Below, in pieces: positions 4,219-44,131 of a DNA stretch of 64,000 nt. The stretch lies in the IMG/VR virus record IMGVR_UViG_3300025789_000028, positions 28,060-92,059 of that record; one strand, 5' to 3'. The position numbers were made by a program, and so were the translations under genes. Below the pieces are notes generated by a model that saw nothing but the letters and a program-made list of their open reading frames with translations, was not told where the DNA came from and made no database searches. Position 1 is the stretch's first letter. Every line of letters begins with the position of its first letter. This DNA is from a virus.

Positions 4219-4821
4219 ATGAACGACAACGATACAATTACAATTACCTCGGCCTTATCAGCGGATGACCTATATGGATCAACAGGCGCTATGGGTGCTA
4301 CTGTTAGTGTGACAGATCACTGGGGTTATGGTAACTTAACAAGTCTTACTCCTGCAAGTATTCCTCCCCTTACTACACAATCAATTGCAAGTTTGTCTAC
4401 TACATTAGGAAATGTGTCCAATGTTACCGGTGGGTTAACTGCTAGTACAACTGTAACCGGGGCATCACCCTATTATTATGGTAATTTGTCTAACGTAGGT
4501 CAATCAGGACAAGTTCTTACGACAAATGGTACTGGTAACTATGGTTGGAACTATGCTAATGTAACATTAAACCCAAACACATACTTAAACGGACATTCAC
4601 TAAAGGTAGCTGGCAATGCTGACTTTGATGGTGATGTAACTGTCAAGGGTAAAAGTTTAATGCAGACATTAGAAAAGATTGAACAAAAATTAGCAATCTT
4701 TAAACAGAATCCTGAACTTGAAGAAAAGTGGGATGAATTGCGTGAACTTGCAGAAAAATACAAGGCACTAGAAAAAGACATCATTGAAAAGGAAAAGATG
4801 TGGGATATACTAAAGAAATGA
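4219..4821 (+). CDS. hypothetical protein (low-complexity N-terminus, coiled-coil C-terminus)
   Basis: 200 aa ORF. Confidence 0.7.
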   Translation: MNDNDTITITSALSADDLYGSTGAMGATVSVTDHWGYGNLTSLTPASIPPLTTQSIASLSTTLGNVSNVTGGLTASTTVTGASPYYYGNLSNVGQSGQVLTTNGTGNYGWNYANVTLNPNTYLNGHSLKVAGNADFDGDVTVKGKSLMQTLEKIEQKLAIFKQNPELEEKWDELRELAEKYKALEKDIIEKEKMWDILKK

Positions 4822-41643: not shown

Positions 41644-41721
41644 TGGAGCGCCCAGAAGGATTCGAACCTCCGACCCTAACGTTCGTAGCGTTATGCTCTA
41701 GTCCAACTGAGCTATGGGCGC
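41644..41721 (-). tRNA. tRNA-Arg(ACG)
   Basis: loop CTACGAA; CCA. Confidence 0.94.
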
Positions 41722-41726
41722 AATTT

Positions 41727-41802
41727 TGGCAGGGGAGATGAGATTCGAACTCATGATACTGATTTCAAAGACCAGTGCCTTAGGCCTCTAGGCGACACCC
41801 CA
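41727..41802 (-). tRNA. tRNA-Gln(TTG)
   Basis: loop CTTTGAA; CCA. Confidence 0.92.
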
Positions 41803-41863
41803 ACAAATTAATAAACACTGAATGCCATTCACACTGTCATAGAGTGGGGGCGATTTTCTTCAT

Positions 41864-41954
41864 ATGCTATTCTAAAACACACATAGTCCACTCCAGTCAA
41901 TTGAGTGTGCCGCACAGGCTATTATGTTCATCCATATGTGTTTTAGAATAGCAT
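41864..41954 (-). repeat. long-stem cassette E (variant)
   Basis: ATGCTATTCTAAAACACATATGG / CTATGTGTGTTTTAGAATAGCAT, 23 bp with 2 G-U pairs. Confidence 0.75.
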
Positions 41955-42096
41955 CTTTCGATGCTATGTTAGGGTCAATGCCCCAACCAGTGATTTTACA
42001 GTCTGCGTTATCGCCACAGATTTCATCCTACTGTCCGCCCATTCGATACATTTTGCGCTGTATTCCGGCTCTCGTTGCCTGTTCACGCTAAGTTGC

Positions 42097-42125
42097 AGTT
42101 TAGTACAACTTTGATTTATTGTCAA
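42097..42125 (-). promoter_or_regulatory. sigma70-type promoter downstream of the terminator
   Basis: TTGACA-17-TAAACT. Confidence 0.6.
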
Positions 42126-42145
42126 GACTTATGTAACACATAAGC

Positions 42146-42181
42146 AAAAACCCCTGAGACTTTTTAGTTTCCCAGGGGTTT
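42146..42181 (-). terminator. intrinsic terminator (candidate attenuator)
   Basis: AAACCCCTGGGA-10 nt loop-TCTCAGGGGTTTTT. Confidence 0.85.
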
Positions 42182-42203
42182 CATAAAACTTGTTAAGTTT
42201 CAG

Positions 42204-42380
42204 TTACTTTGAACCTACTCCTCGATCTATGAAACTCCCCGGTAATCTTGTATCATAATTAAACTCTGATCCACGAATACTAGGTGTCATTGTTAAGCCA
42301 ACATTCGCCCATACTGGTTGCTGTGGTGCTATAGACCATAGTCCGGTATGTTTGGAAGTTTGACACATAATGTTTTTCAT
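42204..42380 (-). CDS. 58 aa putative leader peptide (not in ORF track)
   Basis: MKNIMCQTSKHTGLWSIAPQQPVWANVGLTMTPSIRGSEFNYDTRLPGSFIDRGVGSK; overlaps the antiterminator strand. Confidence 0.65.
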   Translation of the reverse strand: MKNIMCQTSKHTGLWSIAPQQPVWANVGLTMTPSIRGSEFNYDTRLPGSFIDRGVGSK

Positions 42381-42457
42381 AGTATGTTTATTTAGTCCTG
42401 GTTAAAAAAATCGTCAATTTAATAGTGTTTTTCTTCACTTTTTCAATCTATGTATGC

Positions 42458-42486
42458 ATTGTAGCGCCACATTGTTTATTTGTCAA
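42458..42486 (-). promoter_or_regulatory. sigma70-type promoter heading the tRNA cluster leader
   Basis: TTGACA-17-TACAAT. Confidence 0.75.
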
Positions 42487-42512
42487 GTGTTTGTTACCCA
42501 ATAAATAAAAAC

Positions 42513-43067
42513 ATGAACTATCACGCCTTTTCTCATGGTCAGACTCAAAGTAAAATTTGGCTATGCGAATCTCTAGAACCCTACATACCTGATCAAGCAA
42601 TTGTTGCTATCTTAGGCAGTTGGTACAACGTTCTAGGTTTTATGATGTTAACACGAAATCGTAATAAGTATCAATCTATTTTGGGCATAGACATTGATAC
42701 TCAAGCAATTGAGATTTCTAGTAAAGTAAATGCAGGCTGGATGATCGGTGATAGTCCCAAGATGAACAACATCGTTGCTGACGCAAACACTTATAACTAT
42801 CAAGGATTCACACTAGTCATCAACTGTAGCCCTGAACATATGCCAAATGATAGTTGGTTTGACAACATAACACCCGGCACACTGGTGTGCATACAAACAA
42901 GTGACATTGATATCAACGATGAGGTGTGGAAGGTCGTGAACCCTTGTAGGTCTATGAAAGAGTTGGCAAAAAAATATCCCCTTTCACACACCATCTTGCT
43001 AGACACACAAGACATTACATATAGTGATTGGGGATATAAAAGATTTATGTTGATTGGTGTAAAATAA
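42513..43067 (+). CDS. SAM-dependent methyltransferase-fold protein
   Basis: SKIWL, ILGSWY, GIDID, INCSPEHM, RFMLIG. Confidence 0.65.
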   Translation: MNYHAFSHGQTQSKIWLCESLEPYIPDQAIVAILGSWYNVLGFMMLTRNRNKYQSILGIDIDTQAIEISSKVNAGWMIGDSPKMNNIVADANTYNYQGFTLVINCSPEHMPNDSWFDNITPGTLVCIQTSDIDINDEVWKVVNPCRSMKELAKKYPLSHTILLDTQDITYSDWGYKRFMLIGVK

Positions 43068-43589
43068 TTACAATGCTACTTTTCCAACTGCATTGATTAC
43101 ACTTGCAATCTTGGCAACTGCTTGCAACTCAGTAACTGTCATACCTTCTTTGCGTAAGTTGTCATAGTGATTCTTTACACAGAAGTTACATTTACCAACA
43201 ATGCTTGCAGCCAATGCATACATCTCAAATTTCTTTTTGCTTACACCGCCGTGATTAGCATATGCATTCATACGCAAGCCGGGGGGTAGGCCCTTAAGAT
43301 CAGGGTCTTCAGTCATTTCAACAAATGGGTAGTACATGTTGTTCATACCCATAAGTGCTGCCGCAGTTTTAGCTGCCTTTGCTTCATCACTATCTTTCAA
43401 TGGACTTTGTGGGTCATTGTCGATATGGTATGCCAAGTCACCGTTGCCGGCTGCAACTGCTGCCACAAATGCACATGCATGTGCATCAATTGGATCAAGT
43501 CCACTGCGATTCATAACCGCATCTAAGTTTAACTTAATATCCTTAGCGTGGTCAGGGATACTTTCCTTGACTCTATCTACCCAACTCAT
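43068..43589 (-). CDS. ahpD: alkyl hydroperoxide reductase D
   Basis: PDHAKDIKLNL, MGMNN.YY, CNFCVKNH; coupled to ahpC. Confidence 0.92.
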   Translation of the reverse strand: MSWVDRVKESIPDHAKDIKLNLDAVMNRSGLDPIDAHACAFVAAVAAGNGDLAYHIDNDPQSPLKDSDEAKAAKTAAALMGMNNMYYPFVEMTEDPDLKGLPPGLRMNAYANHGGVSKKKFEMYALAASIVGKCNFCVKNHYDNLRKEGMTVTELQAVAKIASVINAVGKVAL

Positions 43590-44131
43590 AGTGTGTCTCC
43601 ACCGATTGGACGACTGCATGGGCACAATTCGCCAGTTTGCAATGCGTCAAGAATACGCAATGTTTCATCTGGATTACGACCAACATCCAAGTTATTTACT
43701 GTAACGTGTTGAATAACATTGTCAGGGTCAACAATGAATGTTGCACGAAGTGCCGCACCTGCTGGACCATAGAAGATACCCAATTGTTCTGCCAATGAAT
43801 TTTCATCACGTGCTACGTCTGCGAAACTCCATGAAGTTGTTTTCTTCAAATCCTCATGTGCATTACGCCATGCTAATTTGCAGAACTCATTGTCTGTTGA
43901 ACCGATTAATAATACTGCATCACGGTCTTCAAAGTCTTGACGTAGCTTGTCATATGCAACGATTTCAGTTGGGCAAACAAATGTGAAGTCTTTTGGATAG
44001 TAAACGATGATCTTCCATTTACCTTCAAAACTTTGATCTGTGATTGTTTCAAATGCATTGTCTGGTGTCAACGCTCCTGGCTTAACGCCTGTGACTGCAA
44101 AACTTGTGATTTTATCGCCGATTGTTTTCAT
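43586..44131 (-). CDS. ahpC: peroxiredoxin
   Basis: YPKDFTFVCPTE, GRN.DE.LR.LDALQ, LCPC. Confidence 0.95.
   Translation of the reverse strand: MKTIGDKITSFAVTGVKPGALTPDNAFETITDQSFEGKWKIIVYYPKDFTFVCPTEIVAYDKLRQDFEDRDAVLLIGSTDNEFCKLAWRNAHEDLKKTTSWSFADVARDENSLAEQLGIFYGPAGAALRATFIVDPDNVIQHVTVNNLDVGRNPDETLRILDALQTGELCPCSRPIGGDTL

Follow-up and report, generated by a model that had tools for sequence, protein, structure and literature searches.

The leader region upstream of the tRNA array

The window analysed in this study, a stretch of 64,000 nucleotides, is part of a 92 kb single-contig assembly of an uncultured phage with a G+C content of about 38%. Ribonucleotide reductase, subtilase, and HNH genes are present in the phage, and its ribonucleotide reductase is 52–60% identical to the reductases of Xanthomonas, Ralstonia, and Stenotrophomonas phages. 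An array of 32 tRNA genes representing all 20 amino acids was identified with ARAGORN. It is preceded on the same strand by a short leader region, the features of which are collected in Table 1. When 50,697 phage records were searched, no resemblance to the leader was found, either as DNA or as peptide.

An earlier reading of this DNA from its letters only (the sequence-only reading) had interpreted the leader as a translation-sensing attenuator. It had described a sigma70-type promoter, an open reading frame of 58 codons that uses 40 different codons and encodes every amino acid, 32 downstream tRNA genes for 20 amino acids, and a further promoter behind the terminator. All of these are present at the positions that it had given.

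Table 1. Features of the leader region and of the start of the tRNA array, given as positions in the window.
Feature	Position	Strand	Remarks
Promoter P1 of the leader	42458–42486	−	TTGACA, 17 nt, TACAAT; 11 of 12 consensus positions
Small 5' UTR hairpin AGTG...CACT	42424–42439	−	read from the sequence
T-run, then AGGA and TAAATA; probable ribosome-binding region	42389–42410	−	9–19 nt before ATG; conserved
Leader ORF	42204–42380	−	58 codons and stop; 20 amino acids; 40 distinct codons
Pro and Ser-Ile-Arg-Gly codons, candidate 'region 1'	42270–42284	−	possible pairing partner of the beginning of strand A
Strand A, antiterminator 5' strand	42226–42242	−	inside ORF codons 47–52
Strand B, extension and terminator 5' arm	42172–42187	−	common to both folds
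Intrinsic terminator	42146–42181	−	12–13 bp stem, 10 nt loop, five T
Second promoter P2	42097–42125	−	TTGACA, 17 nt, TAAACT; 10 of 12 consensus positions; 21 nt past the terminator
Conserved structured RNA between leader and first tRNA	41846–42088	−	fold z −3.5; GGGCGG motif
tRNA-Gln, first of the array	41727–41802	−	ARAGORN; array runs down to 32180

Two further features were seen in the 5' UTR. Judged by eye, the small hairpin is kept in the relatives with differing stem sequences. A T-rich stretch that follows it and ends in TAAC bears a weak likeness to the boxA of rRNA operon leaders; together the two occupy 42401–42440. Two adjacent ORFs of 185 and 181 aa (43068–44131, minus strand) are situated upstream of a divergent 195-aa gene. 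To judge from their sequences they resemble an AhpD-like and a peroxiredoxin-like protein, which would be unusual cargo for a phage.

A family of leaders in front of phage tRNA genes

The divergent 195-aa gene beside the leader was used to collect related sequences and led to 18 related viral contigs. Most of these carry tRNA arrays in the same arrangement, and in seven sequence types a homologue of the leader can be recognised. Further viral contigs were obtained with a conserved 14-mer that immediately precedes the ATG. A locus was accepted when it contained the motif before the ATG, an ATG 12–30 nt later, and the tetrapeptide SIRG (Ser-Ile-Arg-Gly); amino-acid completeness was not among the filters. 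The family comprises 45 loci from uncultured phages, on contigs of up to 349 kb. Among their leaders there are 38 different DNA sequences and 36 different peptides, the latter 44–59 aa long. In addition, a profile search of 1.84 billion proteins returned 57 independent cluster representatives of 41–59 aa.

A tRNA gene on the same strand starts 311–1427 nt after the stop codon of the leader in each of the 36 loci for which the downstream sequence is long enough. Just upstream of the leader no tRNA gene on the same strand was found, and two loci have a single distant one.

The leader peptide matched no Pfam or PHROG family, and searches of Pfam, PHROGs, Rfam, and the 1.84 billion proteins gave no similarity outside the phage family. 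When the region 41700–42600 was compared with Rfam, tRNA was the sole family above threshold; CopA and His_leader scored far below it (His_leader 15.6 bits, threshold 49). A full-text literature search did not reveal any account of a leader of this kind in front of the tRNA genes of a phage.

Probable translation of the leader ORF

For sequence pairs of moderate divergence the ratio pN/pS is 0.65 in the frame of the leader ORF, compared to 0.97 and 1.09 in the other two frames, which indicates weak purifying selection on this frame. That selection should be weak is expected if many positions are free as long as the composition is kept. The short ORF is conserved upstream of the tRNA arrays of related phages and evolves as a translated frame, as the sequence-only reading would have it. 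From this pattern the leader ORF is probably translated, and we infer that translation takes place in vivo.

The motif AGG(A/G)NTAAATA is found 12–15 nt before the ATG in all 45 loci, the motif having been used in part to find them. The distance of 12–15 nt between the AGGA and the ATG is a weak point for translation, 7–10 nt being usual for the genes of this genome. A second class of gene starts was observed, about 7 of the 45 starts listed, in which ATAAATA without AGGA is placed 6–10 nt before the ATG, far above chance. The leader carries both start motifs, the AGGA type and the ATAAATA type; the latter may be a phage-specific promoter or translation signal.

The leader peptide contains all 20 amino acids

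In 32 of the 36 locus peptides every one of the 20 amino acids is present, and the other four peptides hold 19. The cluster representatives give a similar picture (45 of 57 with all 20, 8 more with 19). After three truncated or frameshifted sequences had been left out, the combined set consisted of 89 distinct peptides of 41–59 aa, and 76 of them are complete. The chance level was estimated from windows of real proteins of this genome and of the related loci: all 20 amino acids occur in 0.6–2.5% of the windows at a length of 44–46 aa and in 4–9% at 58 aa.

We then shuffled the residues within the alignment columns, which keeps the positional conservation and breaks the dependence within each sequence. 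In 1000 shuffles 17.3 ± 3.3 peptides were complete, with a maximum of 29, compared to the 76 observed. Where Cys, His, Asp, or Glu is present as a single residue, it occupies 9, 10, 8, and 12 different alignment columns, respectively. The rare residues therefore relocate rather than disappear, which is why the column shuffles destroy completeness, and this spread over 8–12 columns means that selection acts on the composition as such. The conserved small ORF that comes after the next promoter in many loci served as internal control; it has 13–17 amino-acid types and never 20.

The ORF of the window stands out in the same way. Its 40 distinct codons compare with 30.2 ± 3.2 per 58-codon window of the genes of this genome, and no window reached 40, so that the codon diversity emphasised by the sequence-only reading is not typical of genes of this phage. 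Its amino-acid entropy lies in the top 1.1%, that is, the composition is unusually even. The leader has no run or cluster of one regulatory codon, and most amino acids are encoded once to a few times. We also considered whether the leader codons are chosen to match the anticodons of the phage tRNAs. This was ruled out, as the fraction of exact matches is 0.60 compared to 0.57 in ordinary genes.

In the leader ORF of the window all 20 amino acids precede strand A, in agreement with the sequence-only reading, which had counted them within the first 43 codons, and the same is true for 31 of 35 leaders. In the long forms of the leader the 8–12 codons past strand A bring no new amino-acid type. The last types to appear, Asp, Glu, Gln, and Tyr, are often encoded at most 4 codons from strand A, and a ribosome stalled at these codons may cover strand A.

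Some positions of the peptide are fixed. SIRG, being one of the locus filters, is invariant across the 36 locus peptides, and a Trp is near-invariant; the SIRG codons vary synonymously while the residues stay the same. A pure composition sensor leaves both the invariant SIRG and the near-invariant Trp unexplained. A pause caused by the nascent peptide is one possibility to account for the invariance of SIRG.

Two mutually exclusive RNA structures

The sequence-only reading had also proposed that the 3' part of the ORF pairs with the 5' arm of a terminator, and the region 42140–42260 was folded with and without the ORF strand. The minimum-energy fold of the whole region (−29.5 kcal/mol, z −2.2) contains the pairing of strand A with strand B. 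If the upstream strand is left out and 42140–42200 is folded alone, the hairpin of the terminator followed by five U is obtained (−19.9 kcal/mol, z −3.6). As the strand 42181–42172 is common to both folds, they exclude each other, and the antiterminator and the terminator are predicted as proposed. A simple terminator scan had missed this hairpin only owing to its 10 nt loop. The energies of the two helices are −25.8 kcal/mol for the A:B duplex and −18.7 kcal/mol for the terminator hairpin; in the family they range from −17 to −32 and from −15 to −23 kcal/mol, respectively.

All family members with sequence at this place have a terminator hairpin 17–33 nt past the stop codon. In every sequence type except one the hairpin leads into a T-rich tail, with a T run that is clean in most and interrupted in some. 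The exception is the type L002/L003/L004, in which the hairpin is conserved and the U-run is lost. On the MAFFT alignment A1 85.5% of the cells of the terminator stem are paired, and five pairs are changed on both sides. The covariation score was reached by none of 500 shuffles, and sliding the partner strand by 1–3 columns resulted in far lower scores.

Compared to random windows taken from the same locus, strand A pairs much more stably with strand B (family median z −4.5). The core of the helix, CCNGGG pairing with CCCTGG, is nearly invariant. The extension helices that flank the core differ between subfamilies and are still complementary: long forms, including the window, have an 8–10 bp extension helix within the ORF, in short forms the extension helix includes the stop codon, and a third group uses yet another pair of extension segments. 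A ribosome that finishes the ORF could cover strand A: in the short subfamily the stop codon is part of this strand, and in the long one it comes 10–21 nt after it. As the strands A of the two subfamilies stand in different registers in alignment A1, covariation of the antiterminator could not be counted column by column, and each strand A was instead combined with its own and with foreign partners. With the core removed, the energies are −6.9 kcal/mol for the own partner and −4.3 kcal/mol for foreign ones (permutation p < 1e-4, 19 clusters). Thus the terminator covaries among the relatives, and the antiterminator pairing is kept via different sequences. The comparison of the family members shows that selection acts on the frame, on the composition, and on both helices.

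Of 34 leaders modelled with a ribosome placed on the stop codon, 29 form the terminator. When the free RNA is considered, every member favours the terminator state, with a margin of 2.5–11 kcal/mol. The antiterminator therefore would have to win kinetically.

In folds of the whole leader, here and in relatives, a pairing of the start-codon region (42378–42390 in the window) with a segment near the end of the ORF (42226–42236) was noticed. We take it for no more than a pattern, since random windows reach equally good energies (median z −0.4). The long forms use one and the same segment for this pairing and for the pairing with the extension of the terminator, and this extension resembles the start region.

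Promoters of the leader and of the array

Nearly every family member has a promoter at the position of P1, about 75 nt ahead of the ATG, and some have it in duplicate. A sigma70-type promoter like P2 is found 17–37 nt past the terminator in about two thirds of the loci and is absent in the rest. As P2 follows the terminator in the window, the array there does not depend on read-through alone, and read-through from P1 would add to a basal level provided by P2. The sequence-only reading had considered that the array might be transcribed wholly from downstream promoters. In some relatives, loci L001 and L131 among them, no promoter is detectable from the terminator of the leader up to the first tRNA, so that in these loci the structured RNA and the first tRNAs would need read-through.

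A proposed attenuation mechanism and its alternatives

We consider it probable that the leader is a ribosome-mediated transcription attenuator, the peptide of which is kept by selection to hold every amino acid; the leader probably lets transcription into the tRNA genes when ribosomes decode slowly. The interpretation as an attenuator given by the sequence-only reading is thus supported by the comparative evidence. According to the proposed mechanism, the transcript from P1 would carry the 58-codon ORF, and its strand A would be able to pair with the 5' arm of the terminator, strand B. A ribosome located on strand A or past it at the time the terminator is made would leave strand B free to pair with the 3' arm, and transcription would stop. 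If aminoacyl-tRNA of any of the 20 kinds were scarce, the ribosome would be late and strand A would pair with strand B first. With the A:B helix formed before the 3' arm of the terminator, the polymerase would continue into the structured RNA and the tRNA array. The phage tRNAs would speed up translation of the leader and so close a negative feedback loop, while P2 would supply a basal level.

We infer that read-through changes with the position of the ribosome and that delay, not arrival, leads to read-through, because selection for completeness makes sense only if the failure of the ribosome to arrive gives a different output. All codon positions would then be sensed, but a local hairpin between the SIRG codons and strand A, together with the energetics of the free RNA, could restrict sensing to codons near this hairpin. 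The layout may be four-stranded as in trp, in which case stalls far upstream might end in termination and stay unsensed. That the leader responds to the transit of the ribosome to strand A fits with the finding that all 20 amino acids lie upstream of this strand in most leaders and that no new types follow it in the long forms. A wider proposal, which we hold tentatively, is that the leader acts as a homeostat of phage tRNA: it would time one ribosome over at least one codon for each amino acid, any delay would result in more transcription of phage tRNAs, and these would then shut the switch. The delay could be due to the decay of host tRNAs during infection or to tRNA-cleaving nucleases of the immune system.

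The simplest alternative is that the leader is an ordinary gene for a small protein with its own promoter and terminator, the array being transcribed from P2 and internal promoters and the A:B pairing being a by-product of conserved Pro-Gly codons meeting a conserved terminator. The presence of P2 right behind the terminator, as seen in the window and in about two thirds of the loci, would agree with such a gene, as would the fact that folding of the free RNA favours the terminator, and invariant SIRG, near-invariant Trp, and a pN/pS below 1 are what a functional micro-protein would show. Yet selection has acted on the composition and not on the residue positions, as seen from the relocating rare residues and from the completeness broken by shuffling, and the extension helices outside the Pro-Gly codons are complementary through different sequences. 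Moreover, the gene always heads a tRNA array, matches no known protein family, and in several loci no promoter separates its terminator from the first tRNA. We therefore regard a mere small-protein gene as quite improbable. We assign an even smaller chance, and consider it very improbable, to a post-transcriptional role, in which the A:B helix or the hairpin serves to process or stabilise the tRNA precursor at its 5' end, such as by offering a site to a double-strand RNase, and the translated ORF only modulates its formation. Precursors of tRNAs need 5' processing, a conserved structured RNA is located downstream, and the hairpin of L002/L003/L004 is conserved even without the U-run; all other sequence types, on the other hand, do have the T-rich tail, and the presence of all 20 amino acids in the peptide would be left without explanation.

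It is also conceivable, but in our view unlikely, that only ribosomes on the SIRG region free strand A, as in a four-strand attenuator of the trp kind or in a licensing switch. The switch would report either the scarcity of the few amino acids encoded near SIRG or the arrival, perhaps with a programmed pause at the SIRG nascent peptide, of a ribosome by which the upstream codons have been decoded; in the latter case good rather than poor translation would turn the array on. For most members the predicted folds contain a local pairing of the SIRG codons with the core of strand A, and masking this region shifts the balance by 5–8 kcal/mol towards the antiterminator, so that the gap narrows to 3.3 kcal/mol in short forms and to 0.5 kcal/mol in long forms. 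Fixed residues with synonymously variable codons would fit a nascent-peptide pause motif as well. The SIRG–A hairpins are weak, however (−7 to −18 kcal/mol, with large loops), and the 3' part of strand A remains free as a foothold for strand B. Five to six amino-acid types are encoded nowhere but between SIRG and strand A (including Glu, Phe, Tyr, and Asp in the window and Asp and Gln in short forms), and completeness is reached just before strand A, which fits a timing of the transit to strand A better than a readout at SIRG.

Comparison with known regulatory leaders

In its construction the putative attenuator resembles the enteric leaders trpL, hisL, thrL, pheL, leuL, and ilv. They share a short leader ORF, an intrinsic terminator, and an exclusive antiterminator with its 5' strand at the 3' end of the ORF; a possible upstream partner hairpin may be a further likeness, and in both cases the position of the ribosome would decide on the fold. 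Unlike the enteric leaders, which have a run of regulatory codons, the phage leader has every amino acid, and this completeness is under selection. With 44–59 codons its ORF is longer than those of the enteric leaders, the regulated genes would be phage tRNA genes instead of biosynthetic enzymes, and the sequences are not homologous. The proposed logic follows ribosome-mediated attenuation; the complete composition in place of a codon run is what is new.

In function, the mycobacterial whiB7 uORF comes closest as a precedent. It has been reported that this uORF works with a terminator and an antiterminator and that shortage of many amino acids, tRNAs, or synthetases leads to induction, which was seen for 18 of the 20 amino acids (PMC10274678). 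The composition of the uORF decides which amino acids are sensed, one Trp codon being sufficient, and loss of the start codon raises basal expression (PMC10274678). In Mycobacterium smegmatis the uORF encodes 19 of the 20 amino acids; its composition varies by species, is enriched in Ala, and lacks several amino acids in M. tuberculosis (PMC10274678). The likeness, as far as the compositions are compared, lies in a uORF that encodes many types of amino acids. The whiB7 uORF is not kept complete across species, whereas completeness is kept across about 90 divergent phage sequences. The targets differ too: whiB7 is a transcription factor for stress and drug resistance, whereas the phage leader precedes tRNA genes, so that the sensed quantity itself would be subject to direct feedback. 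The whiB7 system is cellular and the phage leader viral, and the two are not homologous.

T-box riboswitches likewise choose between a terminator and an antiterminator in front of genes of the aminoacylation machinery and report on the status of tRNA. In contrast to the phage leader with its conserved translated frame, they bind one specific uncharged tRNA directly and do not need translation. A search with Rfam gave no T-box match in 41700–42600 at E values up to 10. Finally, the tandem sigma70-type promoters before stable-RNA genes and the weak boxA-like T-rich stretch recall the P1-P2 and boxA leaders of rRNA and tRNA operons, but in rrn leaders the stretch from P1 to P2 contains neither a translated ORF nor an attenuator.

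The purpose and the control of large phage tRNA sets is a question that has been sharpened by recent work on tRNA-cleaving immunity (PMC10264068, PMC11464382): bacterial immune systems reportedly cleave tRNAs, and phage tRNAs are said to rescue the infection. If the proposed mechanism is true, the leader represents a new design principle for attenuators, by which total decoding capacity is sensed rather than one amino acid. Should the homeostat exist as outlined above, no regulatory device known so far would have monitored the entire decoding repertoire simultaneously, and viral tRNA genes would have their first known regulator. With a leader peptide attenuator, direct tests of how viral tRNA genes are regulated would become possible. 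The element comprises about 340 nt and is self-contained, so that it could be moved into reporters and might serve as a general sensor of translation stress.

The region between the leader and the first tRNA

The structured RNA between the leader and the first tRNA has a size of about 200–250 nt and is also present in L001 (317–484), L015 (4212–4379), and about 30 other loci. Its GGGCGG motif is found 53–286 nt past the terminator in every locus with enough sequence. The RNA has three or four hairpins, the stems of which covary as judged by eye; it also has a hairpin with the conserved loop AACGAG, the GGGCGG closing strand, and a long stem with a variable insert. RNAalifold gave almost no consensus for the 5' part, and no Rfam family matched the structured RNA at E values up to 10.

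A conserved small ORF of 33–58 aa follows the second promoter in L015 (about 4520–4690, minus strand), L011, L025, L056, L068, L105, and others; it is absent from the window. Its apparent ATG lies inside the spacer of the second promoter, and consequently the full ORF would be translatable only from transcripts that have read through the terminator.

In the tRNA arrays of the relatives ARAGORN reported stop-codon anticodons (CTA and TTA) and one four-base anticodon, at L002 6868–6943, L004 10800–10875, L058 1311–1383, and L042 9189–9270. These are possible suppressor or frameshift tRNAs.
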